The notes beneath the pieces are model-generated. The model was not told the origin of the DNA. It ran no database searches and saw nothing but the letters and a program-made list of their open reading frames with translations. The translations under genes were made by a program, and so were the position numbers. A stretch of 59,819 nucleotides of DNA from a virus. Lineage: Duplodnaviria; Caudoviricetes. Where the stretch lies: positions 1 through 59,819 of the IMG/VR virus record IMGVR_UViG_3300044710_000061; one strand, 5' to 3'. Position 1 is the stretch's first letter, and the number at the start of each line of letters is the position of its first letter. Shown here in pieces: positions 3,596 to 19,892 of the stretch.

Positions 3596-4318
3596 CTAGA
3601 AGTTAAATTTCACCACACCACGGTACATGTTGCCTAGGCCAGGGCACACGCCACTTAAGCCACCGCCAAAGCACGCCCCTGTGGTCCTGACCTGATACTC
3701 GCCATACACGTCAGCCACAACGCCGTTGCTCAGGCGACTCCATGCCCCGATTTGAAACGCTGGAGACACTTCCCAAACTCTATTGGTTGTGAATGGATTA
3801 CCAGTATTTGGATCGATGAACTGCGAACTGACATCCTGGAAATGCCCAGCAAGGGCTGCGTAAGGAACTGGCGTGCCGGTAGTCACACCAACAGGTAGGA
3901 TGGGAAGGCTCGGCACGGCGATATTGTTGAATCCAAACTGACCTAAGAACGATGCGATCGCAGCGTTGCCATATCCAGCGCGGATCATCCCATCGAGAGG
4001 ACCGCTAAGAGAGAAACCGTTGGCTGCGCCATTGAGATTAGCGAACCAGATCGTTCCTTCCACGAACCACAGTGAGGTGGGACCAGTGGCACAAGTGTAG
4101 CCAAACCCCGCACCAATCTCGCCCTGCACCACAGATGCGCCAGGAACAGGTGAATTACTGACAGGTCCAGCCCCACCAGCGGCCCCAACCGTCATATAGG
4201 TTCCACAGCCAGTTGCGGGAATGTCACGAGGCAAGAATGGCGCCTTCGTAGGGAGATCAGCCGCGACCGCTGACCAGGAAGCCAGAGCGAACGACGTAGC
4301 GAGAAGAAGCTTTTTCAT
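3596..4318 (-). CDS. Outer-membrane beta-barrel protein (Omp25/RopB-like)
   Basis: Signal peptide followed by ADLPTKAP, as in rhizobial OMPs; amphipathic strands; C-terminal Phe. Confidence 0.7.
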   Translation of the reverse strand: MKKLLLATSFALASWSAVAADLPTKAPFLPRDIPATGCGTYMTVGAAGGAGPVSNSPVPGASVVQGEIGAGFGYTCATGPTSLWFVEGTIWFANLNGAANGFSLSGPLDGMIRAGYGNAAIASFLGQFGFNNIAVPSLPILPVGVTTGTPVPYAALAGHFQDVSSQFIDPNTGNPFTTNRVWEVSPAFQIGAWSRLSNGVVADVYGEYQVRTTGACFGGGLSGVCPGLGNMYRGVVKFNF

Positions 4319-4503
4319 ATCCGTTTTCCTTTCAGCCGATCGAGCCAGTGCCCACGTTTCTGGCGTAGCTTTCTTACATCTTCACGAATACGCCAGACAC
4401 ACACGGGGCAACCCCACGAATGCCCAGTTCGGCTTTCAAACCGGACATAGCGCTTTTGATGCTTCTCGCAGAATAAAGGGGTTCGTAGTGATATAAATGG
4501 CAC
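4315..4503 (-). CDS. Small Cys/His zinc-binding protein
   Basis: CEKH...CPVC. Confidence 0.45.
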   Translation of the reverse strand: MPFISLRTPLFCEKHQKRYVRFESRTGHSWGCPVCVWRIREDVRKLRQKRGHWLDRLKGKRI

Positions 4504-4509
4504 AGCGGC

Positions 4510-4785
4510 TTATTTCTTCGCCGCCTCTACCGCATCCTTCTTGACCTGGTCGGCCTCAGCAATCGTGGGGGCTCGAGCGAGTGGTCCAGATCCAACGCCC
4601 ACACCACCCGTTGCCAATGTCAGAAACGCCATGATGACGAACACGCTAAAGCTTACCCAGCCTGAGACGTAAGAAACGTATTCAGGCGGCACCAAGCCGC
4701 TTAGATGTACGGCCCCGCTGGTAAGGCCCTGACCGACGGTCGCAGCGAACTGCAGCCAGAACAGCAGCTTTGGTTCGAATTTCAT
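4510..4785 (-). CDS. Holin candidate (2 TM)
   Basis: Start MKFEPK; two hydrophobic segments and a charged tail; downstream of the endolysin. Confidence 0.5.
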   Translation of the reverse strand: MKFEPKLLFWLQFAATVGQGLTSGAVHLSGLVPPEYVSYVSGWVSFSVFVIMAFLTLATGGVGVGSGPLARAPTIAEADQVKKDAVEAAKK

Positions 4786-4880
4786 TGAGTATGCCTTTCG
4801 CTGGAGGTGTTCAAAATTAGACAGACCTAAGCATCCCCACCATGGCAAACAGGACAATGCCGAGGTTGGGAGGCCGAGCC

Positions 4881-5066
4881 ATGTTTGATCAGTCAGGTAG
4901 GCTGATTTGCCAGGAATGCGCTACTGCCATGCTGATTGTCAGCATTCTGCCAGGCGAAGTTCTGTTCCAATGCACAAACGGCGCATGCCTAAAGACGAAG
5001 GTTTACGAGAAATCAACTCGGAAGCAGACACCCCAAAAATCTAAGGAGCAGCCATCGCCATCTTGA
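4881..5066 (+). CDS. Small antisense zinc-ribbon ORF
   Basis: GGAGG upstream; CQEC...CTNGAC; occupies the gap between endolysin and holin candidate. Confidence 0.4.
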   Translation: MFDQSGRLICQECATAMLIVSILPGEVLFQCTNGACLKTKVYEKSTRKQTPQKSKEQPSPS

Positions 5067-5598
5067 GAGCCGCAGCTCCGATCTCTGAAGTTCGCCTCGT
5101 CCAGTCAGTCCCAAAATATTTAAAGCCATTCATCATTTTGTATACCGTAAAACGGCGAGCGGTGAAAGCTGGATTCAGGTTTACGTGGCTGCAGGCAAAC
5201 ACAGCCGACGCTGTCTCCGTTCCCCAACTGCCATCAACCTGAACCTTGAGGCAATGCTGAAGGATTTTGGTTGCCTCAGTACAGCCCATGTTTACGGCGG
5301 AATCGAAGTATTGAAGGTCAAGGCCAGCAGGCAGGTCGCCGCAATGCGGCAGCCAGTAGTGGCCCTTATAGATATCCAGCCCCTCCAACTGAGTGCACAG
5401 CCTAACGTCTTGGCAGTGTAGTCCCTGGCCTTTACGGAACTGATCGTACTCCCGCTGGATTATCCCGCACATGGTTTCCCCACCGGGGTCATGCTTATCA
5501 TTGCTGAAGTTGCGCGGATCGCTCCAGTTGGAGCTGTCAGGGCACTCCTGGGCAAGCGTAAATGGCAGGCAGATAGAGAAGCGATCGGTCATCTTCAT
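5041..5598 (-). CDS. Endolysin, glycoside hydrolase family 108
   Basis: SNDKHDPGGETxxGI, LPAGLDLQYFDSAVNMG, VDGxWGxET and FGxxWxRR motifs. Confidence 0.85.
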   Translation of the reverse strand: MKMTDRFSICLPFTLAQECPDSSNWSDPRNFSNDKHDPGGETMCGIIQREYDQFRKGQGLHCQDVRLCTQLEGLDIYKGHYWLPHCGDLPAGLDLQYFDSAVNMGCTEATKILQHCLKVQVDGSWGTETASAVFACSHVNLNPAFTARRFTVYKMMNGFKYFGTDWTRRTSEIGAAALKMAMAAP

Positions 5599-5810
5599 GC
5601 GCTCTTAAGTGCTAACAATCGAGCATGCACAACGTCTTTGTCATGGCCATCCCAACCCTTCGTGTATGTACGACCTCTGCGCTTAGGAGGCCGATTCTTC
5701 CGATCATATCTCTTCCGATAGAGATCGCATTTCTCCGGATTTCTCTTCTGCCATTCCCTTGTGTATCTGAGGCGATTGACCTTCCAAGTTTTCATGCTCC
5801 TGGCTTCCAA
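5595..5810 (-). CDS. Small basic protein
   Basis: Arg/Lys-rich; coupled to the endolysin start. Confidence 0.4.
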   Translation of the reverse strand: MEARSMKTWKVNRLRYTREWQKRNPEKCDLYRKRYDRKNRPPKRRGRTYTKGWDGHDKDVVHARLLALKSA

Positions 5811-5922
5811 ATTCCAAGGAGAAACCCAAAAGACGCGCCAACAAACAGGCCAAGCAGCATTCCGCTGATTTCAAAATCAATCCATCCTGCACATGCAATG
5901 GCGGAGTCACTAAGCAATTCCC

Positions 5923-6291
5923 TCATGCGCCCGGCCCCGGAATAAAACAGCGAATCAACTTCTTTCCGGTGTCATCAGTAACGCTGGACGAGAACCACAC
6001 AACGGCACGCTGCACAGGATTTGGCACATCAACCACAGCGTCTTCCGGTATCTGCCGCCATTCCCCTTCGACGACAGCCCAGTAGTGTCCGTCTTTAATA
6101 TCCCAGTCGGTTGGATGGCCGTCGGCCTCCGAGCAGCAGAGCATTCCCTTTCCGTTGTGCTGCTGTATGAACCAATCCTTCTGGCCTTGCGTAATATCAG
6201 GCCACTCGTCCGCAACGTTTTCCCATTTGCCATGCGAGAATGTAGAAACACACACGAGCGCCAACGCGCCCGCGAGAGCACGGAGCATCAA
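5923..6291 (-). CDS. Exported Cys-containing protein
   Basis: Signal peptide; CCSEADG...IRCFIPG pattern. Confidence 0.7.
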   Translation of the reverse strand: MMLRALAGALALVCVSTFSHGKWENVADEWPDITQGQKDWFIQQHNGKGMLCCSEADGHPTDWDIKDGHYWAVVEGEWRQIPEDAVVDVPNPVQRAVVWFSSSVTDDTGKKLIRCFIPGPGA

Positions 6292-6320
6292 GTTTTACCT
6301 TTCATGTTGGAGATTGACGG

Positions 6321-6350
6321 TTGACGCCCTACCACCTGCGGGCGTATAAC
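6321..6350 (+). promoter_or_regulatory. Sigma70-like promoter of a plus-strand moron
   Basis: TTGACG-N18-TATAAC, followed by a GC hairpin (about 6356-6389) and GGAG-GTG. Confidence 0.55.
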
Positions 6351-6414
6351 ATAGCGGCCTCCAGAAGCGTTCCCGCGCTCCTGAAGGCCTAACCCTCGCC
6401 AGTGGAGTGAACAC

Positions 6415-6627
6415 ATGGCTCAGGCTACCCAATCCCATATCACATCCGACCTGCGTCAGTCACGGTACTATACAACCGTGCTGCGCACACTTGCGTCAAG
6501 GTTCGATTGGCATACGGCCGACGGACGTCGCAGGATCATTTACCTATCGCTGCGCGCCGGGACCACTTGGCCGGCCGCGCATGCATGGAAGGTGTCCCGC
6601 CGCTGGGTGGAGGACACCGCGCGATGA
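6415..6627 (+). CDS. Hypothetical protein (moron)
   Basis: First ORF after the promoter and hairpin. Confidence 0.5.
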   Translation: MAQATQSHITSDLRQSRYYTTVLRTLASRFDWHTADGRRRIIYLSLRAGTTWPAAHAWKVSRRWVEDTAR

Positions 6628-6900
6628 TACGCTTCATCCTCATCAGCGCTGGACTGCTCGTCCTGAGCGTTCCGCCCACCATCGGCGGCCTTGCATATTG
6701 GCTGCTTTTGTATCAACCGTTCATGCCGTGAGGTGAGCAATGACACCGCAAGAAGCTGCCCGTGAATTAAACCTAATAGCCCGTAGACTTATGGAAGTTC
6801 AGAATGAACTTGCAAACGAGATTGCCAACATTCGCAAAGTGACGGACAATTTTCGATCTTCACCGGAGATGCCGGAACCTAGCCGGTCAAGCCATTACTC

Positions 6901-7206
6901 ATGACGACGAAACGCTGGATAGATGAATATCTCGCATGGAATGCGAGTACTGAAGTGCGCCACCTGCAATCTCGATGGGAAAGGCAAAAAAAGTTAGCCC
7001 TGATGGTTCTTGACGAGAAGAAATCTCTAGAGGAAATAGCAAAGGCTACTGGAAAAAAACGAGCTTCGTTAGCCAGCGATATTTGTTTTGGTGCTCTTGT
7101 TATGAGAGAAGAGCGGGAAGATGCAATGAAACTTTACGAGCTTACTCGTGAACCTGGCATTGGACACATAACAGCTATTAAACGATTCCTGGAATCTACC
7201 TCATGA
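6901..7206 (+). CDS. HTH-like protein (moron)
   Basis: KSLEEIAKATGKKRASL helix-turn-helix-like segment; lower GC. Confidence 0.5.
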   Translation: MTTKRWIDEYLAWNASTEVRHLQSRWERQKKLALMVLDEKKSLEEIAKATGKKRASLASDICFGALVMREEREDAMKLYELTREPGIGHITAIKRFLESTS

Positions 7207-8634
7207 TCCATAGCAAACCCAGTCAAAGACTGCGTTCGCGGTAGACGTGAAGTTGATGACTAAGGTACCGGTGCTCGGGACTACTGTCGTCGGAGCCACC
7301 TGGTGACCGGAAACAACGCAACGGGGCGCCGCGGAAAACGCGGTGCCGAACGTCACGGTGCAGGATGTCGCCGAAGCTGTCTGATTGCCCACCGTTCCAG
7401 ATATATCTGTGCCACTTATCGCACCGCCAGTCCCATTGCATCCCGCTGTCACGGTCGGAGCGACGCCAGACCCAGCATAGGTGGCATGGCCGCCGGTAGC
7501 TGATGCAGAGAGTGTCATGGTTCCGCTCGTCAAACCGTTCAGTACAAGCGTTCCATTGGTGGAATTGCTAGTGCCACCTCCCACAATTTGCCCGGATGGA
7601 CTAATGGCAAATCCTGGGGACTTGAAGGCAAAGCCGCTATAGGTACCGCGGCTGAGATCGACACCATTGACGAGCGACGCATCGTTACGGAATGCCGTAT
7701 CGGATACGGTAGCGGCAGATACATAAAATCCATTGACGTCGGTGCTCGATGAACTCACCGGATTGGTCATGAACCCGGCAAAGCAGGTGTTGCTACCGCC
7801 ACACGTCGCCATAAATCCGGCGTTAAAACTGGAGCTGCTAAATGTTGTGGTCTGATTGGTCCCGCTGCTGTTGATGGCGTTCCCCTCGGTTCCAATCAAC
7901 GTTGAATATGCAACCGTTGCTGTGGCAATACCCACAAGCCCTTCGCAGTTTCCGAGTGAAGCGGTTGTGCAAGCTCCAGTTCCATACGCTCCAGCAACGC
8001 CGCCATTACCCGCAGTCTCGACAGCTTCGAACTGAGCCGCTTGATTTATGATATTACTTCCGCTGCCAATCTTTACCGTCGAAGCGTATAGAGTCGGCAC
8101 CACGCCATTGGTGCTTGTGTTGTTCCTTACAGTCTGGAAAATAGCGGTCGCCTGATCGTCGTTGACTGGCGTGCTAAAGTTTCCCCTCACCCCAAGGAAA
8201 AGAGAATCCGCAGCGCCGGCCATATAGGAATCGGCCACCGCGAAAGGGTTGCCAAGCGTTACGGCAAATTGATGCGCTGTCTGATTGAGGGTGCCCCATA
8301 GAACACAATCCGTGCCATCAAAGATGTTGAATGTCGTTCCGGTAGGCGCTCCAGTCGTATTCACGAATGTCTGATACGTCGAGAGCGATGGCGGGCTGCA
8401 CGTTGGGCCGCTTGGTGGCAGAGCACTGCTAGTCGAGGCAACCATATCAAGCAGCGTTTGCCGCGCATTAAACGGAGTAATGAAGTTCTGCGTATTGTCT
8501 GGCCACAGGTTGTTAATTTCCGTCTCCAGAGCCATCGGTGTTTTCGGCGTACCGGTCTGGGCCATTGCACCGAACAACGATGCAAGCCATATTGATCCTG
8601 ACAGGAGAAGGCGAGCAAACATGAATGCTTTCAT
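7201..8634 (-). CDS. Tail fibre/adhesin-like protein with a signal peptide
   Basis: Start MKAFMF...FGAMA|Q. N-terminal WPDNTQNFITP module, Gly/Ser/Thr beta-rich body, C-terminal VTFGTAFSAAPRCVVS...FDWVCYG tail-fibre-type end. Confidence 0.7.
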   Translation of the reverse strand: MKAFMFARLLLSGSIWLASLFGAMAQTGTPKTPMALETEINNLWPDNTQNFITPFNARQTLLDMVASTSSALPPSGPTCSPPSLSTYQTFVNTTGAPTGTTFNIFDGTDCVLWGTLNQTAHQFAVTLGNPFAVADSYMAGAADSLFLGVRGNFSTPVNDDQATAIFQTVRNNTSTNGVVPTLYASTVKIGSGSNIINQAAQFEAVETAGNGGVAGAYGTGACTTASLGNCEGLVGIATATVAYSTLIGTEGNAINSSGTNQTTTFSSSSFNAGFMATCGGSNTCFAGFMTNPVSSSSTDVNGFYVSAATVSDTAFRNDASLVNGVDLSRGTYSGFAFKSPGFAISPSGQIVGGGTSNSTNGTLVLNGLTSGTMTLSASATGGHATYAGSGVAPTVTAGCNGTGGAISGTDISGTVGNQTASATSCTVTFGTAFSAAPRCVVSGHQVAPTTVVPSTGTLVINFTSTANAVFDWVCYGS

Positions 8635-8800
8635 ACCTCTAGTTCTCATTGCTCTATCTGTCTTCATTGCTTTCCATGTCGGATACGAAGCCGGCTTACG
8701 TGAAGCCAATTCCGAATGGGTCAGCATTGTCCATGCTCCAGGCGTGTGTGTGACCGCAGTCGATAATCCTACTTGCTTTGCGCAGCCTTTGCGTCGCTGA
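8621..8800 (+). CDS. Small antisense membrane ORF
   Basis: AGGAG upstream; N-terminal TM segment; fills the gap 8635-8768. Confidence 0.4.
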   Translation: MNAFIPLVLIALSVFIAFHVGYEAGLREANSEWVSIVHAPGVCVTAVDNPTCFAQPLRR

Positions 8801-8993
8801 GTTGCTTTTCGAGATCTGCAATCTTGTTCTGCAAGTCGGTTACTGCAGCCGCGCAGGAGGCCAAGTTATCAAGCGCACTGTTCCGCTGCTGCTGATAGTA
8901 GGGAACCAACTTCGCTGCAGTTGATGCGGATGGCTGTTGCGCGAGAGCCACGGATGTCATCGTCATAAGACTGGCAACCACTAAACTTTTCAT
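8769..8993 (-). CDS. Small exported coiled-coil protein (fibre chaperone-like)
   Basis: MKSLVVASLMTMTSVALA|QQ; heptad C-terminus; lies directly after the tailspike. Confidence 0.6.
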   Translation of the reverse strand: MKSLVVASLMTMTSVALAQQPSASTAAKLVPYYQQQRNSALDNLASCAAAVTDLQNKIADLEKQLSDAKAAQSK

Positions 8994-9000
8994 GTCACCT

Positions 9001-11289
9001 CTACGGAGAGCCGCCGCCGATTGTGTTGCCAGTTCCACTATTGCCAACGTTAGATGTATTGGCGGCATAGTTATTTGACTGCACGTTGTTATTGTCTGCC
9101 CCAGCCTGCAAAGCTATACCGGTCGTAAATCCTTGTAATAGATTTCCGGTGATTATGTTTGAATCTGAACCCGACGTAAGTTCAATTCCGAACGTCGATG
9201 AATTAACTGTAGATAAGAAAGTATTTCCTACAAAAGCACAAGCCTGGCAGATGCCTAAAAATCCGACACCATTAGCGTTATTGACGAAAAAATCATTACC
9301 GGTAAACGTGACTCCGCCAACCAGCGTCTGAAACAGAACGTCAGAAACAATGTTATCAAAATTAGTCCCTTGGAGTAAGGCAGACGTTAATCCCCCAGTC
9401 TCCCCTGACAATGTAGCGATCCCATACTGATTTCCAATCAAATTCGATGAATTTACCTGCAGGCCCTGCACGAAAGAACCGAATAGTATTCCATATTGTT
9501 CAAATCCAATATTCGCAGATGTAACATTAAAGCCTACAGCAAAAGTAGAACTGGCCGGAAGCCCAACGAGAGATATACCGGTACCAAGACGACCGCTTGA
9601 CCCAAAAATGGATACGCCCGGTAAGTTGACATTGGATACATTGGCAATATTGACGCCGATAGTCCAGTAATCTGTGAGCGCGTATCCGTCGTCTCCTCGT
9701 ATCGTTACGTTACTAATATCCGACAACGCAGTAGTGGCAGGGTTGGAATTTGCAGAGCTTTGATTCAAAGTAATTGCGTTGCCGCCGGATGAGGCTCCAG
9801 TCGTAAAGGTCAAGTCTCGTATATGTACCGATGACGATGGACTGCCATAATTTATGACCATTCCTCCTGACGAATTCGGCCATGTTAATATTGTATTGTC
9901 AGAACCGCTTCCTCTCAGCGTGAGAGAAAAAATTCCAGTTGGAATGGAGATTGTAGGAGATGACTGGAAAAGGTATTTTCCTGGCTGAAAATAGATGCAT
10001 CCTCCGTTGCCAGTCATTGATGCAAATGCGTTCAATAGCGGCATTGTGTTGTCTGTGGAATCATTTCCAGCGCCGCCGAAGGCCGTAATAAGGATGCACT
10101 GATTAGTGTTGTTGACAATGATCGGGTTTAGAATGTGGAACGAATTCTCAGTCGCCGAATAGATCACGGATATAGGATTGTTAGCAACGAGTTCACCTCC
10201 GCTGAGTGCTTCCGGACCCTGCGATGTATCTTTGACCACAGGAATGGCGCCAAAGCTTGAAGGATTTATCGTTGTCGCCGCCGTGTTGTCCGATAGGGCA
10301 ATGAAGTTGATGATCGAACCATCCGTGGCATTGAATCCAGGATCTACCAGAGTGATAACATTTGGAGTACCACCCGCAATGCCGGCCCAAAAAACGTTCT
10401 GCTGGGCAGATGTGTCGGTCGTCAGCTTATCCCAGACAGTGTTGCCGATCGAATCTTGCAGAACCTGACGATAGATTCCCGTGCCGTAGATCGTGGCACA
10501 GCCATTGGCATCCAGCGTCACCGGATTAGTATTGAGCACGGTCTGTGTGCTGTTCTGCCAAGTCTGCTTGAAGGTGGTGGTGTTGGGAATGTAGAAAAAT
10601 ACGTTTCCGCCGGCCAAGGCGTTGTTGATTGTGATGCTCTCGACCTGAATGGAAAAACCGCTGGTGCTGCCAATCGACTCGGAGGCGGCAGAGATGGTGT
10701 CCCCTACTTGATATTGAATGCCAGGATTGAGAATAGTCACTTGCGTGACTGCGCCACCTGACACGGTAATGTTGGCCGTGGCGTTCATACCGGATCCACC
10801 GGTCACCAGTACGCCGGCATAAGTCCCAGAGGTTCCGCCTGTACCACCTATTAGGTTTCCCAATAGGCCGAGCATGCCTGTCCCTGTAGTGGACACACCA
10901 GACACGGGAACAGAGAATCCAGTTCCGGAGCCACCCAAATTGGCGGGAGATGCCGACAGCGTATCGTTCACCGCAAAGTGGGAACCGACATTGGTCATCG
11001 AAATTGTGGCTACAACGCCGCCAGCTACGACGATCGTAGCTCGAGCTCCAAAGCCATTACCGCCCGTCAAGGGAACGTTCGTGTACGTGGCATTGGCATA
11101 GCCGGACCCACCCGTAATCGTCCCCAGGGTCGTTATTGGACCGTATAGACCACCTGACGTTGGGGTTGTGGCGTTAAAACATTGCTCGCCGTTAGGTAAC
11201 AGGGTAGCGGCGGCGTGCGCTTGCTCAAGGTGGGCGCAAAAGGCTAGAATGGCCGGTATGAGCCGTGAGGCAACTTTTCTCGTCATCAT
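9001..11289 (-). CDS. Tailspike with beta-helix body and a signal peptide
   Basis: LAGGNVFFYIPNTTTFKQTW...NTNPVTLDANG virion-attachment module; FGGAGNDSTDNT...IYFQPGKY pectate-lyase-like start; N-terminus ends AHA|A. Confidence 0.8.
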   Translation of the reverse strand: MMTRKVASRLIPAILAFCAHLEQAHAAATLLPNGEQCFNATTPTSGGLYGPITTLGTITGGSGYANATYTNVPLTGGNGFGARATIVVAGGVVATISMTNVGSHFAVNDTLSASPANLGGSGTGFSVPVSGVSTTGTGMLGLLGNLIGGTGGTSGTYAGVLVTGGSGMNATANITVSGGAVTQVTILNPGIQYQVGDTISAASESIGSTSGFSIQVESITINNALAGGNVFFYIPNTTTFKQTWQNSTQTVLNTNPVTLDANGCATIYGTGIYRQVLQDSIGNTVWDKLTTDTSAQQNVFWAGIAGGTPNVITLVDPGFNATDGSIINFIALSDNTAATTINPSSFGAIPVVKDTSQGPEALSGGELVANNPISVIYSATENSFHILNPIIVNNTNQCILITAFGGAGNDSTDNTMPLLNAFASMTGNGGCIYFQPGKYLFQSSPTISIPTGIFSLTLRGSGSDNTILTWPNSSGGMVINYGSPSSSVHIRDLTFTTGASSGGNAITLNQSSANSNPATTALSDISNVTIRGDDGYALTDYWTIGVNIANVSNVNLPGVSIFGSSGRLGTGISLVGLPASSTFAVGFNVTSANIGFEQYGILFGSFVQGLQVNSSNLIGNQYGIATLSGETGGLTSALLQGTNFDNIVSDVLFQTLVGGVTFTGNDFFVNNANGVGFLGICQACAFVGNTFLSTVNSSTFGIELTSGSDSNIITGNLLQGFTTGIALQAGADNNNVQSNNYAANTSNVGNSGTGNTIGGGSP

Positions 11290-11545
11290 ATGGGGCCTGT
11301 TTTGGCTGGGCGCATGTTTGCGCTCAATGACCTATTGGATAGTCGTTGTTTTCTTAGCCGTGATGCTCCAGTGGATCGATAAAGTGCCGATCGCGTACGA
11401 ACATCTCGACAACATCGAGCATTGGTGGCTATTCGGCTGCAATGTTCTGGTGCTGATAATTATTGCCCAAGCCGGCTATCTCCGCGATGCATTGGCGAAG
11501 CGAAAACAATCACGGATTCTCAGCGGGATGGACCGTAACTCGTAG
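11258..11545 (+). CDS. Antisense membrane protein, superinfection-exclusion candidate (alternative start 11327)
   Basis: Two to three TM segments; lies between ejection genes and tailspike, where P22 carries sieA/immI. Confidence 0.45.
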   Translation: MSREATFLVIIWGLFWLGACLRSMTYWIVVVFLAVMLQWIDKVPIAYEHLDNIEHWWLFGCNVLVLIIIAQAGYLRDALAKRKQSRILSGMDRNS

Positions 11546-13840
11546 CGGTTCGCGTTGAGTTGTTGCTAATCCAGGAAGTAAATTCAGACCCCCCGGTTGA
11601 TTCCCGCGGAGACCTGACCTGATCATGGCGTTCGCTATCGTATTGCTGCGCGCAACTGATCCAAGGCCAGCGCCAGCGGCAAGCGTTCCCGCACCTATGA
11701 GGGCATTCCTCTGCCAACTATCGGGATCGATATAAGTTGATCCACCGAGACCCACAGCCCCGAGCCCAAGAGCCCCGGCAGCTGCTTGCGGTAAATGCTG
11801 AAGAAGAAGAGAGCGCTCTGCAGTCCCACTACTCGACGGCTCAACCAAGAAGCGCCTGGCAATGCGCCCTAATTCACCGGCATCGGTGCTACTGTAATCA
11901 AGAGCCTTGAGAATTTTAGCTGGTGAGATGTTCCCCGTCGTCGCCTCATTGGCCAATGGTTCTAATGATTTAGCTACAAAATATTTGTAGTCAGCAGCAT
12001 CCTTAAGGGCTTTCATCTGAGGATTGTTGCGCCCGACAAGATTTTCCAGCGCATCCTTAATGTCAGATGCGTAGGTACCGATTTTTGAATCCTTAGAATT
12101 GATGGCCTTATCAAGGGGGCCGTTCTCACGCGTGAGGGATTGGAATAGGTCAGGGTCAAGCGTGTGCGTCCCCTGATTGACCTTATCCAATACGTTCCCG
12201 ATATGGCCCTCGACCAACCTAGCTTGTGGCTTTTCTAGATTGTAACGCGCATTGGTTAGCGTGTCGGTCAGATCCTGATAGAATTTCTGATCGAGGTTGA
12301 GGTGGCCCATATTGGCCTTGGCGGCGTCATATAGTCCGTAAGCAGTTCTCTTCGCCGTATTGATCACGTCTGGCGTGATCTTATCCGAGGCAACTCCCAT
12401 CTCATTAGCTAGACCGCGCTGCAACGCAGCTTGCTGCTGTGCGGAATGTGGGCCTACACCAGTGAACGGTAATCGCTGAAGGACCGAGTCCATAAATCGA
12501 ACAGTCGGATTTTCAGAAATCTGAGACCACCGAACCGGTATCCCGAACTTTTGCCTTGCTGTCTGGGCGAGTTGCGCGGTGTCGCGATCAATGCCAAACA
12601 AGCGACCGAATTCACTGCCCACCACCCCTAGAGGCGCCCCGAACTCGGCTCCAGCCCTGGCCTGCTCCAAAACAGGCGTGTCAGATTTTGCTGATGTAAG
12701 GACGTTGGTGCCGGCGCCCGTCGCCGCCCCTGTAAGAGCCGGTCCAAGGATGCGTCCGGCATAAGGAATGCGAGAGATGGCCCCCAATGCTGGGGTAACT
12801 CCTGGCACCGCGCTCAAGGCACCGCCGCCGGCTGCAAGCATCGGAGCTGTTCCGGAAATCTCACCACCGACTTCTCCAAGTCTGCCAGCAAAACCGGGAT
12901 CTGATGCCTCGTAACCAGCCCTATTGGCCTCAATTCCAGACTGAACACCACGGCGCCAATCTGACACAGCCTGCGCATTCTCTGGAGAGAGGTAGCCATG
13001 CGCAGCCAAAGAACTTGCGCCCCTTTCACCGAGCGCCGCAATACCTTGAGCCAATGTATCGCCGACCGTGCCAATGCCTCTTCCAATACCTGCCGCTGCT
13101 CTTATGGCAACGTCAGACATGCTATCCGGAGACTTGCCGGTTACGAGGTCGGTGATATTCTTCGGACCGTGCCCGTGGGCTTCACCGGTAATGCGATTGA
13201 TAAACTCAGGAATCGTCTCTCTGTCTGATGCCTTCGCAGTTGTGGGAGACGAAGATGGCGAGGGCGCAGCTGGTGCCGCTGGGGACTCAGTATCCTTCGA
13301 AAGCCAATCCCCTACGTAATCCCTGGCCTCTGCCGGAACAGCAGCGGGTGGTGCAGACTTCTTCGGCGCTTCTGGCTCCGCATTCAGCCAATCGTTGATG
13401 TAATCGCGATCCGGCATGCCAGACACTCTTCCTTCAGGGGCATAGAAAACGTGGCTGCCAATTCTCAAACCTTGACCATGTGCCCAATCTGGCAAGCGAC
13501 CGTAGCGCTGTTGGACAATATTCGGTTCCAGAAAATGAGTCATTCCCTTGGTTGGGTCAGCAATCTTTCCAGCGAGAACACCATCGACAATTTGCGCTGT
13601 GCGTTGATAGCGATCTGAATTTACAGGAATGTTGATCAGTTCATTCGATCTGGTGTCCCATGGCTCCCATTGCCCTTTGGCAAATAGGACATCCGGCATT
13701 GTCTTTCCGTATTTTCCTGAAGCAAGTCGGTTAAGGGCGACATGTGCTACCGCAGCCTGACCGAGAGCAGGCTGATCATCAGCCTCCCCGATGACGGTTC
13801 TGATAAGAAGATCACGCGAGACGCGATCAAGATCAGGCAT
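11510..13840 (-). CDS. DNA ejection protein with an N-terminal SleB/Hydrolase_2 cell-wall hydrolase domain
   Basis: GEA...AVAHVALNR...GQWEPW...DPTKGMTHF...IGSHVFY motif; Gly/Ala-rich remainder; gp16-like position. Confidence 0.75.
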   Translation of the reverse strand: MPDLDRVSRDLLIRTVIGEADDQPALGQAAVAHVALNRLASGKYGKTMPDVLFAKGQWEPWDTRSNELINIPVNSDRYQRTAQIVDGVLAGKIADPTKGMTHFLEPNIVQQRYGRLPDWAHGQGLRIGSHVFYAPEGRVSGMPDRDYINDWLNAEPEAPKKSAPPAAVPAEARDYVGDWLSKDTESPAAPAAPSPSSSPTTAKASDRETIPEFINRITGEAHGHGPKNITDLVTGKSPDSMSDVAIRAAAGIGRGIGTVGDTLAQGIAALGERGASSLAAHGYLSPENAQAVSDWRRGVQSGIEANRAGYEASDPGFAGRLGEVGGEISGTAPMLAAGGGALSAVPGVTPALGAISRIPYAGRILGPALTGAATGAGTNVLTSAKSDTPVLEQARAGAEFGAPLGVVGSEFGRLFGIDRDTAQLAQTARQKFGIPVRWSQISENPTVRFMDSVLQRLPFTGVGPHSAQQQAALQRGLANEMGVASDKITPDVINTAKRTAYGLYDAAKANMGHLNLDQKFYQDLTDTLTNARYNLEKPQARLVEGHIGNVLDKVNQGTHTLDPDLFQSLTRENGPLDKAINSKDSKIGTYASDIKDALENLVGRNNPQMKALKDAADYKYFVAKSLEPLANEATTGNISPAKILKALDYSSTDAGELGRIARRFLVEPSSSGTAERSLLLQHLPQAAAGALGLGAVGLGGSTYIDPDSWQRNALIGAGTLAAGAGLGSVARSNTIANAMIRSGLRGNQPGGLNLLPGLATTQREPLRVTVHPAENP

Positions 13841-13853
13841 CTAATTAACCCGA

Positions 13854-15101
13854 TTACCTTTTCGCCGCAGCAGGCATATCAATGATCCCTGCCTCGTCGG
13901 CTGACCGTAGAGAATTGTTAACCCGCGCCCGCTCTGCTGGAGTCAATGATTTAAGGAACTTAGCTCGCTCCGCAGGCTCCATCAGATCGATTTTGAACGC
14001 TCTGATATCGTTTTTCTTAGTCCAATCCGCCTTTGCAGCCGCGTAATTCTCCGGTCCAGCTTTGGACGCTTCTTGAATTTGCGCTTGTTCAGCCCGGTTA
14101 ACGGCAATGCCAGTCTTGATAAGATCCGGCAACGCAAAGTCTGTCACATGGACATTAGGAGAACCGCTCACCGTTGTGGATAGGCCTTGATCAGAGTGCA
14201 CCCCAAGGGAACCGGCTCGATTCTGCAGTGTCTGCGTCAAATACTTCTTGGCGCCGGCAAAATCCGCCAATTTCTTCGGGTCAATACCTAGCGCAGCGCC
14301 AAGCGTCGGGCTAAGCGACTGTATCAATCCGGCAACATCTTGCCGGGCTTCTGCGCCAGGTCCAAAGTTTCCGCCCTTGGCCTGGAAGTCATTTACGGCC
14401 CTTAGTGCTTCGGTCCACGGCGTCATCCTTTCATTAAATTTCGAAGCAACACCTTGATCCTCGACCAATCTGTTGGCGGATGCTTGAGCCGTCAAACCAA
14501 GCCCTGTCGGCAATACGCCAGCAATATTTGCAGAAGTTGTGGGAATGGTTCCTCTTGCTCCACCAGGACCGACAAGCTCCTGCCTATTGGATTGCTCAGC
14601 AGGAGAAAGACCGAGATTGCGAATCATTCCCTGCGTTTGAGGTCGGTTACGAGAATTAATCAGGGAATCCTGAATGGGAAGAACGAGATTTGTCGGAACG
14701 CCTAGACGTCTTGCCGTTGCGGCCGCCGCGTTCACACTCTCGTTGCTTGGATTGTCACCCAGAGCACCGAATACCGTGGATAGAATCTGCTTGAATTGGT
14801 TTGAATTCTGCGTCTGAGTGCCAATGACATTCTGAAGTTGCTGCGGAGCCTGGCCGCCGAACAAGGCTTCAGGATATTTCTGAAGCGCATCTCTAGCCTT
14901 TTCTGGATTAAGTGTCAGATCAGGATTGAGCGATTCCTGATAGACTTGGCCGATTGCATTTTTTGCCTTCAACTCCTGCATCAGAAGTTGATTGCGCGTT
15001 AAAGATTCGAAAAGTCCTAGCGCCTGCGTCGGATTAGCCCCTCCACCTTGCGAAGGCTGCGGATAGAGACCGATCGGAGGCGGTACAGCTAGATCAGGCA
15101 C
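13854..15101 (-). CDS. Probable DNA ejection (internal virion) protein
   Basis: Gln/Ala-rich helical protein within the ejection gene block. Confidence 0.6.
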   Translation of the reverse strand: MPDLAVPPPIGLYPQPSQGGGANPTQALGLFESLTRNQLLMQELKAKNAIGQVYQESLNPDLTLNPEKARDALQKYPEALFGGQAPQQLQNVIGTQTQNSNQFKQILSTVFGALGDNPSNESVNAAAATARRLGVPTNLVLPIQDSLINSRNRPQTQGMIRNLGLSPAEQSNRQELVGPGGARGTIPTTSANIAGVLPTGLGLTAQASANRLVEDQGVASKFNERMTPWTEALRAVNDFQAKGGNFGPGAEARQDVAGLIQSLSPTLGAALGIDPKKLADFAGAKKYLTQTLQNRAGSLGVHSDQGLSTTVSGSPNVHVTDFALPDLIKTGIAVNRAEQAQIQEASKAGPENYAAAKADWTKKNDIRAFKIDLMEPAERAKFLKSLTPAERARVNNSLRSADEAGIIDMPAAAKR

Positions 15102-15633
15102 GTCCGTAATGTCCCATTGCGCCTTGAATGTCGGCTAGGTGGTTATCGGGATCGGCTGTCTTATCGATTAATTGATCATGGACTCCGCCAAAGGCTTTGC
15201 CATGATCCTCAAGAACCTGAGCCTTAGCAAGGACAGCCTGTACAAGATGTTTCTGTAGCCACTGTTTCTGCTGAAACGGCTGATCTGGAACGCTAGCAAG
15301 CTGCGACACGGCGTCTCCCGGTGTTATGATGCGGCTAGCCACCAAATTGGCAACACCATCCGTGATCTTGGATTTAATATTGGATTTGCCGACTGCGGGA
15401 TCCTTTAGGATTGCCTTTAGCTCTTTTTCGATGGCGTCCATATGTCGGAGGACGGCAACTGTCTGCCCATGCGTAGGCGCTGGAGCCTGCGGGGCACCCT
15501 GCTGGGCACCTGAAGCCATTGCCTGTCCTGGCATAGGAGCGCCTTGCAATACCCCTCCTTGAGGCTGCCCCGGTGCCTGGATGGTGTTCGGAGCGGGAGG
15601 TGGTCCGCCCGCATCAAGTACGCCTTGAGCCAT
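15094..15633 (-). CDS. Hypothetical virion-associated protein
   Basis: Start MAQGVL with an upstream SD; Pro/Gln-rich N-terminus. Confidence 0.55.
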   Translation of the reverse strand: MAQGVLDAGGPPPAPNTIQAPGQPQGGVLQGAPMPGQAMASGAQQGAPQAPAPTHGQTVAVLRHMDAIEKELKAILKDPAVGKSNIKSKITDGVANLVASRIITPGDAVSQLASVPDQPFQQKQWLQKHLVQAVLAKAQVLEDHGKAFGGVHDQLIDKTADPDNHLADIQGAMGHYGRA

Positions 15634-15635
15634 GA

Positions 15636-15857
15636 TCAGTTCTCCACCGGAGTGATGGCATCGGGTGTCATCCCTGGGCCAATGCGATGCCGCAAAGTAT
15701 TGCGGCCGTGGCAGCCAGGGCACTCCAAGGTAGGTGCACTCGGCCAGACATATGCCGTGAATTCTTTGCCGCAGTCCTGGCAATCAACCCTGAAGCGTAC
15801 CGACCCCTGTAGCGCAGCTCTGATTTTCGCTAGTTCTTCATCGCGCGCCATGTTCAT
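15636..15857 (-). CDS. Small zinc-ribbon protein
   Basis: CQDC...CPGC; ATGA overlap with the upstream gene. Confidence 0.5.
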   Translation of the reverse strand: MNMARDEELAKIRAALQGSVRFRVDCQDCGKEFTAYVWPSAPTLECPGCHGRNTLRHRIGPGMTPDAITPVEN

Positions 15858-16261
15858 CCATAAATTCCAGAGCCACCGAACCCGCCATTCATTGATGGAC
15901 CCGCACCGCCGATACCAAGCTTTTGTAGGAGCATTGAGACTAGCTGTTGCCATTGCTGGCCTGATCCCGATGAGGCGCTTGGCGCAGCTGTGACACTGGG
16001 ATTCGATGCCCCTAGCGAGGATCCAAAAGGCTGGCTCTGCATTAGGTTGGACTGGCCCCCGAGAATAGGTGATGATACTGGCCCACTTAAAGACATTCCA
16101 GGCGAAGCTATATCCGGTTGCCCCGGCTGATTCTGCTGTCCTTGTCCAAGGGATCCTAATCCGGCCAACTGGGTCATGGCAGAAGTCCTGATGCCAGCGT
16201 TTGCATTCAGCATCCCGGCCGGGGTCTGCAGACTTTGGCCGCCGAGCAATAAGGGGAACAT
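15854..16261 (-). CDS. Gly/Ser/Gln-rich ejection-type protein
   Basis: Composition and position. Confidence 0.5.
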   Translation of the reverse strand: MFPLLLGGQSLQTPAGMLNANAGIRTSAMTQLAGLGSLGQGQQNQPGQPDIASPGMSLSGPVSSPILGGQSNLMQSQPFGSSLGASNPSVTAAPSASSGSGQQWQQLVSMLLQKLGIGGAGPSMNGGFGGSGIYG

Positions 16262-16267
16262 TTATCC

Positions 16268-16948
16268 TCAGGCCGGCGTTGGAATTGCAGTGTTGGTAAG
16301 ATTGGCCACTTGGCCGCCATAGATATCGCCACCTCCGCCGCCAAACTTGTTGCTTATCCCATAGAGCAGTGCGGCATTGCCCAAGCTGCTAGTCGTACCA
16401 GTCAATCCAGACGATATGGCATTGGCTGATCCTAGCGTTCCCGCGGCCTGCGCATTGCCAATGCTGGAAAGCGCCGACTGCGATCCACCTGACAAAGCAG
16501 TAGCCGCCGACCCCTCAAGATTAAGACCCGATTGTGCCAAGCTCTGCAGCGAACCTGTGTAATTCCCAAAAGCCTGTTGCGCCAATCCGGTCGCATAATT
16601 CGAGGCTGCAGTAAGGGTATTTCCACCAAGACCCATGGCGGTTCCCGCGTTCTGCGCGGCCGTCTGGCCCCATTGTTGGGCAAATTGAAATCCCGGTAGT
16701 TGAGAAAGCGTGGCCGTCTGGCTTGGTCCTGGAGTGAGAAGCTTTTCCAGAGTCGGAAGGGCAGAACCGGCAATCCCCTGACCTTGTGTAATCAACGGGC
16801 CGATCGTCTGTTGCAGCATCTTCAACACTTGCTGTTGAGCGGCAACTTGTTGGCTCGAAGCCTGCTGCGCAGCATTGGATCCTATGATAGAAGAACCGAT
16901 CGATCCGACGGCGCCAAGGCCGCCCATTATCAATGCGCTGGTCGGCAT
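16268..16948 (-). CDS. DNA transfer protein, P22 gp7-like
   Basis: GSIGSSIIGSNAAQQA N-terminus, PGFQFAQQWG, GNAQAAGTLGSANA. Confidence 0.7.
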   Translation of the reverse strand: MPTSALIMGGLGAVGSIGSSIIGSNAAQQASSQQVAAQQQVLKMLQQTIGPLITQGQGIAGSALPTLEKLLTPGPSQTATLSQLPGFQFAQQWGQTAAQNAGTAMGLGGNTLTAASNYATGLAQQAFGNYTGSLQSLAQSGLNLEGSAATALSGGSQSALSSIGNAQAAGTLGSANAISSGLTGTTSSLGNAALLYGISNKFGGGGGDIYGGQVANLTNTAIPTPA

Positions 16949-17733
16949 TTCACCACCTTAAAGGTGTCACCGGTGACGTGAATCATGGATTCGCCCATAT
17001 CCAGGAAAACCGGATTTTTTGATATGAGGTTGATCTGCTGATAACCGGCAACGCGCGCCCAGCGATTGTAGAGGACTATGCCCTTTTCAGGCTCACCGCC
17101 CCTTATCATCTCGACGGCAGCGCCCACCGCAAGATCATGTGCCTCATCATCCGGATGAGACTGGTGCACGAAATCGTGGCGCTCGTATTCTTCCTCGAGC
17201 TTGACGTGGAATAGGCGCCCGGTCTCCATGACTGGCTTTGGCTTCTTGGCCAGCCAATCGTATATTGTCATTATATACACGCGCACATCTACAAGCCCGC
17301 TTTCTGTCGGCCATACCTTTTTTCTTTCAAACCATAAGTTACCGCCCACATAGCGGGCCAGAGCTTCTGCAGCGCGGTTGAATGATGGGACTTGAGTTTG
17401 GACGATGGCGCAGCTCGTCTTCGTGAAGATCCACCGCAATGCCTCCTGTACGACCCACGCGGCGTGCTTGCCACGATGATCTTCAGTGAAATTGATGTGT
17501 ACCTCATAGATACCACTTCCAGGCTCTGCGTCCGGCGTGAAGACAATCACACCGCCCTTGGCGACCAAGAAGACATATCGAGGGTCTGTAACGAGAGGCG
17601 TGACGTCAAGCGGCGGACAATCGGGCTGACTAATCAAAGGAAACACGCTTGGGTCGTTCAGGATCCTGTTGATTTCCGTTGGACTCTCCATTTCCCTATG
17701 AAGGAGAGCATGTCCGTTCATTTCTTGATTCAT
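16930..17733 (-). CDS. GNAT-like head-completion protein (P22 gp14-like position)
   Basis: YEVHINF...RGK...WIFTKT...VPSFNRAAEALA acetyltransferase-like pattern. Confidence 0.6.
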   Translation of the reverse strand: MNQEMNGHALLHREMESPTEINRILNDPSVFPLISQPDCPPLDVTPLVTDPRYVFLVAKGGVIVFTPDAEPGSGIYEVHINFTEDHRGKHAAWVVQEALRWIFTKTSCAIVQTQVPSFNRAAEALARYVGGNLWFERKKVWPTESGLVDVRVYIMTIYDWLAKKPKPVMETGRLFHVKLEEEYERHDFVHQSHPDDEAHDLAVGAAVEMIRGGEPEKGIVLYNRWARVAGYQQINLISKNPVFLDMGESMIHVTGDTFKVVKCRPAH

Positions 17734-18176
17734 AGACCCGTCGTAAGCCGAACGAGATAAATCTGAGTGGTAGTCCAGACCTCGAACAAAGCTAGATCAC
17801 CAGGTGCAAGCGAATAGGGAGCGTTAGCTCCCCCGCCGTTAATCATTGCACCGGCAAACGGATACACATTGATAGCTGACCCCGTATTGTTCAATACGGA
17901 AATATCGTTTCCTGGTTGCATGCTGGGCATCGCCACACCGCCAGTACCGCTATCTATTCTGTTCCAATCCGCGGTAAGCCCAAGCGCATCTTTCTGCGAA
18001 CTGCCAGACGCCACCAACCCAATCTTGGCAAGAGGAACGATACCGGTTCCTGAACCGGTTCTATTGAACACGGCCAGCATCCACTTATAAAAGGTGGAAG
18101 TTGGCTGACCATTTTGCTGATTGATGATCGGCGTTCCGCCAGACATAAAGTTGAACGGAAACGACTGAAAGCTCAT
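17730..18176 (-). CDS. Tail needle/knob-like protein
   Basis: Follows the gp10-like gene; beta-sandwich C-terminus similar to 19893..20315. Confidence 0.5.
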   Translation of the reverse strand: MSFQSFPFNFMSGGTPIINQQNGQPTSTFYKWMLAVFNRTGSGTGIVPLAKIGLVASGSSQKDALGLTADWNRIDSGTGGVAMPSMQPGNDISVLNNTGSAINVYPFAGAMINGGGANAPYSLAPGDLALFEVWTTTQIYLVRLTTGL

Positions 18177-19696
18177 GCGCCAGCCGGAATCGGATCGATG
18201 TATCCACCATTGAGAGCTGTGCACATCTGAGCAGTTGAACTTAGCTCGAATACAGCGTCTCTAGCTATACCAAGCCCACGCCAGCGCATAGGCGGTCGAT
18301 AGTGACCAGATGACACATTCTGTTGGGGACGATATTTTCCGAACGTGTTGCCTCCATCACGCGACATGCGGAGGTTTACGATCGGCGCTGGAACACCGGT
18401 TATCGGACCAAAGCCAGAACTAAAACCGCTGCTCCATGGGCTGAGATATTGGGCCGTCTCACCGGTCCCAGGTTGGTCTCCAGTCTGGACATCGGCCATA
18501 AACATGGTGTGCTGAACCCACTTAAGTTCGTTCACGATGTGAGGAAAAGACCTAATCCACGGAATCGGCTGACCGGCATCCAATTTGGCATCATACGTCA
18601 TCTCGTACAGAGCGCCGTTGTTCCAATCGAGGCCAAGATTGCGATTATAGGCAAACGCCGTGAATGTGTTGCGCGCTCGTCGCAGTACACCGTTGCTGTC
18701 AATCCAGTTATCTTCCCACCATTGCTCTGTCGCCGCGTCATAAGCCCAAGTCTTGTCAGCAGTGGGGAAAGTAATTCTGTAAAATGAATGACCACCTATC
18801 TGGTAAGTAGAGCCGATCGCATCGTCCACCCGTGCATATTTCTTCCATTCCGCCTCCACGGCATGGTTTGAAATTCGTTGCGCGATGTTCTGTGATCCAG
18901 CCCTCATGGCCATGAAGCCCCCTTCAGGGGAGCTAGACAACCAATAGACAAAGGTGTCCATCTTGGCTGGCGAATAGACCGCTTGCAGTCCCTGTTCGAT
19001 AATGTTGCCTGGGATAATCTGGAATGGGAACACCGGCGCTCCAGCATTAAACCAGACCTCGGATTTCTGAGGACCAAATACGTAAACCTCGCGCTCTACG
19101 GTCACAACGCAAAGAACAATGTCAGGCCACGCAGTTTTTACACCAACGAAGAGCCCGTTAAACGGCGTAACAGCATCCGAGGTTGTGCTGTACCACTGAT
19201 TGGTGCCAGGATGATTCAGAACGATAAAGCTATCCAGAAAATCCGCGCGCGTTGATCCCAGAAAATTCGGATCACTCACGATGCTGAACGCTCTAGTGTC
19301 TATAGTTATCTCGTATCCATGCTGTGTCCCATCAACGACGAGAATCGTTTGTCCATTGTCAGCCATGTATGCGGGATTTGTCCCAGCAACTTCCATCTGT
19401 CCTATAAATGTAAACCTAAAATCAGGATCTATGAAGTAGATGTTCTGGCCAATGATAGCGTAGAGATCACCGTTTGGATCCGCCACGCCTCTAGTGGTCC
19501 GGTAGAGGCACCGACCTTGTGCTATCAATGGTGATACGGCGAGTTGGTTGAGACCTGGCCTGGCATAATGCGTAGTCGGCATATTGGGCGCCGTCTTCTC
19601 CGGGTTCTCCTCTGGAAACATGTTGATGCAGCGTTGCGCATCGGCAATCAAAGAAGCAGTAGAATATGCGCCAGACTTCAGCGGGATGGCGACCAT
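18173..19696 (-). CDS. Tail hub / DNA stabilization protein, P22 gp10-like
   Basis: QRCINMFPE, MADNG, RISNHAVE, SRDGGNTF and WRGLG motifs. Confidence 0.85.
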   Translation of the reverse strand: MVAIPLKSGAYSTASLIADAQRCINMFPEENPEKTAPNMPTTHYARPGLNQLAVSPLIAQGRCLYRTTRGVADPNGDLYAIIGQNIYFIDPDFRFTFIGQMEVAGTNPAYMADNGQTILVVDGTQHGYEITIDTRAFSIVSDPNFLGSTRADFLDSFIVLNHPGTNQWYSTTSDAVTPFNGLFVGVKTAWPDIVLCVVTVEREVYVFGPQKSEVWFNAGAPVFPFQIIPGNIIEQGLQAVYSPAKMDTFVYWLSSSPEGGFMAMRAGSQNIAQRISNHAVEAEWKKYARVDDAIGSTYQIGGHSFYRITFPTADKTWAYDAATEQWWEDNWIDSNGVLRRARNTFTAFAYNRNLGLDWNNGALYEMTYDAKLDAGQPIPWIRSFPHIVNELKWVQHTMFMADVQTGDQPGTGETAQYLSPWSSGFSSGFGPITGVPAPIVNLRMSRDGGNTFGKYRPQQNVSSGHYRPPMRWRGLGIARDAVFELSSTAQMCTALNGGYIDPIPAGA

Positions 19697-19892
19697 GCTA
19701 CCTGCTCGCGAGTTTTAAGCGCATCGCCGCACCAAATGATGTCATATCGAGGCGAGACCGCATGCTCTGCCTCCTCCATTGAGGAGAAGACGCCAAACGG
19801 CCCGATCGGAATATCAGGAGGATATCGGCCTACGCACCATTCGCCTGGCTTACGCAGCCAGCAATAGAGCTTGCGGCGGCGTGACACTGATT

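Follow-up and report, generated by a model that had tools for sequence, protein, structure and literature searches.

P22-type tailspikes with predicted Sec signal peptides suggest that host-recognition proteins of some tailed phages mature outside the cytoplasm

We analysed a linear stretch of DNA of 59,819 bases, hereafter the window, which is an entire IMG/VR virus record (IMGVR_UViG_3300044710_000061; Duplodnaviria, Caudoviricetes) and is 86 % complete by CheckV. Our subject is a run of three consecutive minus-strand genes that encode a P22-type tailspike, a 74-amino-acid (aa) protein and a second fibre. The initial annotation of the window had noticed that all three (9001-11289, 8769-8993 and 7201-8634) begin with signal peptides, and the N-termini read in the sequence confirm the leaders. 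The features of the three genes, with structural statements taken from AlphaFold2 (AF2) models and their predicted local distance difference test (pLDDT) scores, are as follows.

9001..11289, minus strand: tailspike gene, 762 aa, with a leader, an N-terminal strand, a Gly-rich repeat insertion, a head-binding domain and a variable C-terminal part
11212..11289, minus strand: predicted Sec/signal peptidase I leader of the tailspike, codons 1-26 (MMTRKVASRLIPAILAFCAHLEQAHA), cut before AATLLP; AF2 helix at 3-19, pLDDT <50 at residues 22-32
11143..11211, minus strand: conserved mature N-terminus, residues 27-49 (AATLLPNGEQCF...), with invariant A28, T29, P32, C37 and F38
10618..11142, minus strand: two Gly-rich repeats of ~80 aa each, residues 50-224, inserted between the N-terminal strand and the rest of the head-binding domain
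10120..10617, minus strand: head-binding (particle-binding) domain and conserved neck, residues 225-390, with invariant Cys264, assigned by a profile against PDB
9004..10119, minus strand: variable C-terminal receptor-binding part, possibly a beta-helix, where homologue coverage drops to 30-50 % of the query
8769..8993, minus strand: 74-aa protein with a leader, a short helical, coiled-coil-like mature part and one Cys
7201..8634, minus strand: second fibre, 477 aa, with a leader (8560-8634), a conserved N-terminal module (N-module, ~8425-8559), a variable body and 10 Cys

The tailspike gene occupies the place of P22 gene 9, after the ejection-protein genes, and 460 homologues of its product were found. 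A virion-attachment-type module (LAGGNVFFYIPNTT...NPVTLDANG) had been proposed at this position, and the proposal holds: the module corresponds to residues 225-263 and matches solved tailspike head-binding domains. Profile A2, built from the N-terminal domain of 15 homologues, matches two PDB entries, the tail spike of cyanopodophage Pan3 at E 3.1e-8 and, at E 1.2e-6, the 'Tailspike head-binding domain' of cyanophage Pam1, in both cases at chain residues 13-88, and the domain is present as a single copy in the record (profile match at 10345-10623, E 4.6e-36). Foldseek with the AF2 model of the tailspike (mean pLDDT 63) gave no PDB match at E <=0.001; Pan3, Pam1, the N-terminal part of P22 gp9 and Sf6 were retrieved at probabilities of 0.96-1.00, all with E >0.001. 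Matches in cultured phages cover residues 222-447 only and lie in genes annotated as tailspike or tail fibre. Judged by its head-binding domain and its gp9 position, the protein is, on sequence grounds, a real tailspike.

In an alignment of 40 homologues, conservation extends over the first 390 residues and the remainder is variable, which is the pattern of virion-anchored receptor-binding proteins. The C-terminal part matches NosD with E 0.0087 and 16 bits, below the Pfam cut-off of 23.6, and pLDDT is <50 across most of residues 564-762. The repeat insertion (pLDDT ~90) has PHROG matches to virion structural, tail fibre and baseplate wedge proteins and is missing from three related loci (L011, L029 and L030) and from leaderless forms. 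In the precursor, the head-binding domain is not at the extreme N-terminus: the 26-residue leader lies ahead of it and the 175-residue insertion splits off its first strand. The predicted cleavage would make this first strand N-terminal again.

The N-terminus of the tailspike reads MMTRKVASRLIPAILAFCAHLEQAHA followed by AATLLPNGEQCF. The cut had originally been placed directly before ATLL; the leader stands, while the exact string does not, one Ala having been dropped. The sequence runs ...EQAHA AATLLP, and the likely cut lies between AHA and AATLLP. The start at 8993 gives MKSLVVASLMTMTSVALA ahead of QQ..., with the cut of this 74-aa protein after residue 18 or residue 26, and the start at 8634 gives MKAFMFARLLLSGSIWLASLFGAMA ahead of QTG...; a gene caller agrees on both starts. 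All three leaders open with a K/R-bearing stretch, continue with a hydrophobic core that is uncharged and spans 10-15 residues, and have small residues at -3 and -1. Our leader rule flags 20 of the 89 greedy open reading frames (ORFs) of the window when alternative starts are allowed; in the morphogenesis block (11510-30880), which has 21 minus-strand ORFs, it flags 1, at an internal start only. This low count, together with the recurrence of leaders across the families, indicates that the three leaders are more than chance.

The leader is found throughout the tailspike family of the window. Among 120 listed homologues, 97 have a called leader whose predicted cut falls <=3 residues from the conserved AATLLPNGEQCF motif; the remaining 23 comprise 15 with a hydrophobic stretch that fails one rule, 6 that start within the mature protein, 1 with a long unrelated extension and 1 with a short non-hydrophobic start. 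The called leaders are 18-36 residues long, and all but one of the 97 carry a net charge of +1 or +2 over their first 8 residues. We calculated column entropy for 106 sequences anchored on the invariant Pro. It is 2.4-3.6 bits along the leader, with Ala in 75 % of sequences at -3, 3.59 bits at -2 and Ala in 64 % at -1, and it falls to 0.2-0.9 bits from +1 onward, resulting in a sharp conservation boundary at the cut. The drift in sequence under preserved physico-chemical properties, and the AxA at the sharp boundary, point to a leader that is translated and cleaved. The hallmarks of a Sec/signal peptidase I leader (a positive N-terminal region, a hydrophobic region of ~7-15 residues and small residues at -3 and -1) are present in the window tailspike, whose hydrophobic region spans ~10 residues, and in the family.

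Other types of N-terminal signal were considered and rejected. A twin-arginine translocation (Tat) signal would require the RR pair, and there is none in the three window leaders nor, by eye, in the listed leaders of the homologues. For a lipoprotein signal processed by signal peptidase II, there is no lipobox Cys and the mature proteins begin with Ala or Gln. A signal-anchor-release (SAR) domain does not fit the conserved AxA after a short hydrophobic region, and a mis-called start does not fit a frame that is open in nearly all homologues with no Met at the junction.

The initial annotation had asked whether most homologues start near ATLLP, with a leader added in this clade. Leaderless homologues in related loci do start exactly at ATLLP, as MATLLPRGKQQF, MSASLLPNAKQSF, MAALPLPNGKQQF and similar forms (M-ATLLP), and in all four cultured phages that were checked (Ralstonia P4282, Rhodoferax P26218, Xanthomonas PBR31 and an assembled podovirus) the annotated gene starts 1-4 codons before the motif, with no leader. 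As to the second part of the question, the leader is not specific to the clade: it is carried by 83 of the 149 parsed top representatives of the wider family. A profile search of 1.84 billion cluster representatives yielded 26,076 family members at E <=0.001. Of the best 150 of these, 66 start at the motif and 77 are called leader; the others are 4 with a hydrophobic leader that fails the rule, 2 with a truncated leader and 1 with a visible leader and a divergent motif. Leaders are therefore present in about half of the best 150 of the 26,076 clusters, in proteobacterial and Bacteroidota-style forms. No conserved in-frame start is found at the leader/mature junction in the 15 loci examined. 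The leader state needs at least 11 changes on the FastTree phylogeny compared to 49-53 in the five shuffles printed, a count to be discounted to the extent that this tree is unsupported and built on a 100-aa domain.

The Bacteroidota-style forms are recognised by the residue at the cut. Of the 83 leader-bearing representatives, 52 have Gln there (e.g. ...AYA-QTASILP), and F, I, K, N, S and Y are abundant in these leaders. Gln at +1 is given as the rule for Bacteroidetes signal peptidase I substrates in excerpts of two reports (PMC5837995, PMC10653852). The make-up of the leaders, the Gln at +1 and a locus guanine-plus-cytosine (GC) content of 0.40-0.46 would point to Bacteroidota hosts. A search of 401 genomes from the phylum of a Mucilaginibacter genome gave two family matches, both leaderless distant forms. 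On one viral contig (L029:5252-8958), a leader-bearing tailspike gene lies between two further genes with leaders, immediately ahead of those for the large terminase and the portal.

Another line of evidence comes from cysteine content. Exported bacterial proteins favour even Cys counts, with the residues paired as disulfides, according to part of a published report (PMC7678975). Counting Cys in the mature parts only, we obtained the following distribution.

Window family, leader-bearing (n=108): even 102, odd 6, zero 0
Top representatives, leader-bearing (n=83): even 77, odd 2, zero 4
Top representatives, leaderless (n=66): even 21, odd 39, zero 6

The difference between leader-bearing and leaderless representatives is large (Fisher p = 8e-17), in a contrast that treats representatives at 50 % identity as independent. 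Leader-bearing representatives with Cys have from 2 to 24 of them. Such a wide spread of nearly always even numbers means that the Cys number has changed many times and almost always by twos, an argument for which independence of the sequences is not needed. From these counts, an even Cys number is kept by leader-bearing tailspikes and only by these. Within the window, the leaderless virion proteins have 0-5 Cys, with none in 8 of 15, compared to 6 in the tailspike and 10 in the second fibre. Cys37 and Cys264 are invariant in the family of the window and absent from the leaderless forms; the sole hint of their proximity is a pair of 3-residue strands at 35-37 and 264-266 in the AF2 model. Besides the assumed independence of representatives, several observations weigh against the parity argument. 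Tree-aware analysis of leader versus even Cys leaves 2 independent pairs on supported branches and has no power, the Cys37/Cys264 pair is limited to one clade with 8 leader-bearing proteins lacking it, and odd counts are found in the 74-aa protein (one) and in a neighbouring 122-aa leader protein (three).

Of the 13 relatives of the second fibre in the large database, 9 have a called leader. In related loci as well, the tailspike gene is followed by one whose variable leader precedes a conserved module (Q..K..L..EI..FPDN..ITP..R..L.D..S). The leader-bearing second fibres have even Cys counts in 10 of 10 and 8 of 8 cases. A hidden Markov model of the N-module found 10 ORFs in 9 loci, all with a repeat-insertion tailspike, and none in other loci. 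This co-occurrence fits a second fibre that would dock on the insertion, with the proviso that all such loci belong to one clade. A complex prediction with three copies of tailspike residues 27-225 and three copies of second-fibre residues 26-80 scored 0.00, which is uninformative either way. The AF2 model of the second fibre (mean pLDDT 43) was too poor for a fold search, and tblastn of the protein against cultured phages gave no match. One related locus carries a tandem pair of second-fibre genes, each with its own leader and conserved N-module (L005:7907-12082).

The 74-aa protein had been proposed as a small coiled-coil partner of the two fibres. It is too rare to be a general partner: only 4 sequences, including three other homologues, were found in 5.8 billion, and phmmer against all ORFs of the related loci gave no match. 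Two of the homologues have different leaders (MKFIISAILIAASSAASA compared to MKSLVVASLMTMTSVALA) before a mature part that is 87-100 % identical.

The wider record also encodes an integrase, a ParB-like protein and a DnaA-type helix-turn-helix protein, together with a P22-like morphogenesis module on the minus strand, upstream of the tailspike gene. The main elements of the module and of the lysis region are listed below.

29417-30880, minus strand: large terminase of the P22-like module
27173-29416, minus strand: portal of the P22-like module
22420-23679, minus strand: scaffold and major head protein of the P22-like module
18173-19696, minus strand: gp10-like hub (Hc3) of the P22-like module
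11510..13840, minus strand: last ejection protein, with an N-terminal cell-wall hydrolase (Pfam Hydrolase_2, E 4.2e-17; PHROG DNA ejection protein, E 2.6e-26)
11249..11545, plus strand: small ORF with three hydrophobic segments, between the ejection-protein and tailspike genes, overlapping the start of the latter by ~40 nucleotides
5041..5598, minus strand: leaderless endolysin of glycoside hydrolase family 108 (Pfam Glyco_hydro_108, E 9.3e-17; PHROG endolysin)
4510-4785, near the endolysin: protein with two membrane segments in its sequence, a holin candidate

The ejection-protein gene at 11510..13840 lies directly upstream of the tailspike region. The order of the module, with the tailspike after the ejection genes, is identical in four related loci (L005, L006, L030 and L050), and the gp9 position is kept in relatives of both leader types. 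The small plus-strand ORF has no match in Pfam or PHROG. Its place resembles that of P22 sieA, whose product is described in part of a report as an inner-membrane exclusion protein with three spans, encoded in the region upstream of gene 9 (PMC10461980). In two other loci (L009 and L081) this place is taken by unrelated small membrane ORFs. A scan of 4500-12000 for promoters and terminators found sites no more numerous than in shuffles, and megablast of the window from 5 to 25 kb against cultured phages gave no match. GC content is 0.484 over 8001-10000, which corresponds to the variable parts of the tailspike and second fibre and is expected for exchanged receptor-binding modules.

Further genes of the window have leader-like N-termini. 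Upstream of the terminase, a minus-strand run of about nine genes (31330-41641) has a GC content of 0.58-0.59 compared to ~0.54 elsewhere, and nearly all of its products have such N-termini and high, even Cys counts (22, 16, 4, 14 and 4). The proteins scanned have no Pfam match and the four large ones scanned have no PHROG match; as atlas leads, a 779-aa protein resembles viral hypothetical clusters and a 942-aa protein resembles LamG/beta-helix proteins. This run is probably the 'exported operon' that the initial annotation had tied to the virion, a tie that the shared leaders and the Cys-rich, even-count proteins would suggest. It is adjoined by a gene of the histidine phosphatase family (42224-43039, minus strand; His_Phos_1, E 1.1e-25). 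Near the lysis genes, a 240-aa protein (3596-4318, minus strand) has a strong leader (MKKLLLATSFALASWSAVA), a C-terminal Phe and no Pfam match, and by eye looks like an outer-membrane beta-barrel moron. The 122-aa leader protein with three Cys (5923-6291, minus strand) is encoded just upstream of the endolysin and has no Pfam or PHROG match.

Taken together, the AxA leader signature, the leaderless forms that start at ATLLP and the Cys parity strongly support the earlier proposal that the receptor-binding proteins are exported, and sequence comparison gives good support to the prediction that the tailspike and the second fibre reach the periplasm. These results suggest that maturation of the host-recognition proteins takes place outside the cytoplasm, in contrast to the remainder of the particle, which is built within it. 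We propose that both proteins would be made as precursors with cleavable Sec signal peptides, which would cross the inner membrane unfolded and be cut by signal peptidase I. The cleavage would leave the tailspike with a free N-terminus, AATLLP..., near-identical to that of the leaderless relatives after Met removal, and folding, disulfide formation and trimerisation of both mature proteins would follow in the periplasm. As in P22, the cytoplasm would be the site where heads are built with portal, tail hub and ejection proteins. If the spikes are both exported and part of the virion, docking can take place only once the inner membrane is open; they would meet the heads upon its opening by the holin or at lysis, and would dock through the conserved head-binding domain. 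The endolysin of the window has no leader, so a hole-forming holin should be needed for lysis. The second fibre would probably ride on the tailspike, at its Gly-rich repeat insertion. Late docking is feasible in principle: spikes of P22 bind spontaneously to finished heads in vitro. We regard export and periplasmic maturation followed by late docking on cytoplasmic heads, taken as a whole, as the probable course of events, with considerable room for doubt.

Some considerations tell against this course. Docking at lysis would compete with dilution, the record is incomplete so that its missing part could encode a leaderless spike, and a leader-bearing member of the family was found in no cultured phage. 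The same export evidence would also apply to an enzyme that never joins the virion, namely a periplasmic or released glycan-cutting enzyme that remodels or strips host surface polysaccharide, with superinfection exclusion, easier release or less progeny loss on debris as the benefit. Such a protein has a precedent, there acting on the bacterium's own exopolysaccharide, that weakens the case for virion membership: WceF of Pantoea stewartii is described, in part of a report, as a bacterial exported, trimeric beta-helix enzyme that keeps a P22-like N-terminal head domain outside virions (PMC7949094). The opposite-strand gene also separates the tailspike gene from the upstream late genes, and transcription of its own may follow. 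The likeness to WceF has its limits, since that protein uses a Tat signal and is encoded in a chromosomal exopolysaccharide cluster, as the available text describes, while in the window protein the twin arginine is absent and its gene is part of a phage morphogenesis module, within a virus record that has genes for an integrase, a terminase, a portal and a capsid. Furthermore, the head-binding domain is the most conserved part across hundreds of sequences with a variable C-terminus, the gp9 position is kept whether or not a leader is present, the record has no second head-binding domain, and P22-type particles require spikes for adsorption. We consider a purely enzymatic role unlikely.

Similarly unlikely, to the same degree, is a dual localisation in which a cytoplasmic fraction, resulting from leaky export or a second start, arms the virions and the exported fraction destroys receptors from within. 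In 7 of 15 loci, the codon for one of the two Leu residues preceding the conserved Pro is TTG and might act as a start, and a weak ribosome-binding site with a short hydrophobic region could make export leaky. Yet 7 of 15 is by our estimate about what chance gives for two Leu codons, no ATG, GTG or TTG lies near the junction in the window and in four other loci (L002, L007, L050 and L051), and even counts of up to 24 Cys suggest that the functional form is oxidised. It is also conceivable that the leader has no role in export, being an untranslated upstream extension of the ORF or an uncleaved hydrophobic helix that serves, for example, as a cytoplasmic-side tether or SAR-like anchor. This explanation draws on facts that count against export in general: there is no clear Shine-Dalgarno sequence before the ATG at 11289, which the opposite-strand ORF overlaps, and the leader is called from the sequence by a home-made rule of our own instead of a SignalP-type prediction. 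It is at odds with the open frame of nearly all homologues, whose start lies 18-36 codons upstream, with the lack of a Met at the junction, with properties kept under sequence drift, which requires translation, and with Ala conserved at -3 and -1 around a free -2. A hydrophobic region of this length is too short for a stable membrane span, and both the Gln rule and the Cys parity would be left unexplained. We therefore hold a leader without export to be very improbable.

The proposed export and late docking can be compared to known systems. Leaderless P22-type tailspikes (Pan3, 9vyg/9vyh; Pam1, 7eeq; P22 gp9; PBR31, P4282 and P26218) have the homologous head-binding domain in common with the window protein, and like the window gene theirs follow the ejection-protein genes and have a conserved N-terminus and a variable C-terminus. 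For PBR31, part of the report names the N-terminal beta-sheet part as the likely virion-binding domain (PMC10975493). The known forms start M-ATLLP-like without leader, and leaderless homologues have no even-Cys bias, whereas the window tailspike is set apart by its 26-residue leader, its 175-residue repeat insertion and its conserved Cys pair. Signal-peptide and SAR endolysins such as Lys44 of fOg44 are likewise late phage proteins that use the host Sec pathway and wait outside the cytoplasm before lysis, according to part of a report (PMC6116005); they are lysis enzymes and not virion parts, and SAR domains stay uncleaved, in contrast to the AxA cut site observed here. Phage proteins of Porphyromonas gingivalis have Q-rule signal peptides whose predicted cleavage exposes Gln, read as an adaptation to host secretion; in the excerpts of that report their function is unknown and they are not identified as tailspikes or fibres (PMC10367356).

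Two further systems supply the separate elements of the model. pIII of filamentous phages is a receptor-binding virion protein with a Sec signal peptide that joins the particle outside the cytoplasm, but the particles of these phages are put together at the membrane and leave the cell by extrusion, without lysis, while here a tailed, DNA-filled head is built in the cytoplasm. In the branched receptor-binding complexes of CBA120 and G7C, extra N-terminal domains of one spike dock a second spike; the insertion of the window tailspike resembles the T4 baseplate-wedge family (phrog_438) and co-occurs with the second fibre, which would be consistent with a comparable docking, although the CBA120 and G7C proteins have no leaders. 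A full-text literature search that extended to journals outside subscription found no report of a signal peptide on a tailspike or fibre of a tailed phage. The sources it yielded, as far as their excerpts go, describe signal peptides on endolysins, on the Porphyromonas phage proteins of unknown function and on bacterial WceF.

Textbook assembly of tailed phages is entirely cytoplasmic. We hypothesize that a large share of the P22-type family may instead use two-compartment assembly, with Sec-exported, disulfide-bonded spikes mounted on DNA-filled cytoplasmic particles after the holin merges the compartments and with each infected cell also holding a periplasmic store of receptor-cutting enzyme, a generalisation to which we give an even chance. 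If periplasmic maturation is true, the last assembly step would depend on holin timing, on host Sec and Dsb and on the mixing of compartments at lysis, and the cysteine-rich spikes would be explained. Such spikes would be predicted to misfold when expressed in the cytoplasm as depolymerase reagents. The phage would also possess a built-in means of stripping receptors from the dying cell. Finally, for many uncultured phages the receptor-binding proteins would go unnoticed by annotation pipelines in which genes with leaders are discarded as non-structural cargo.

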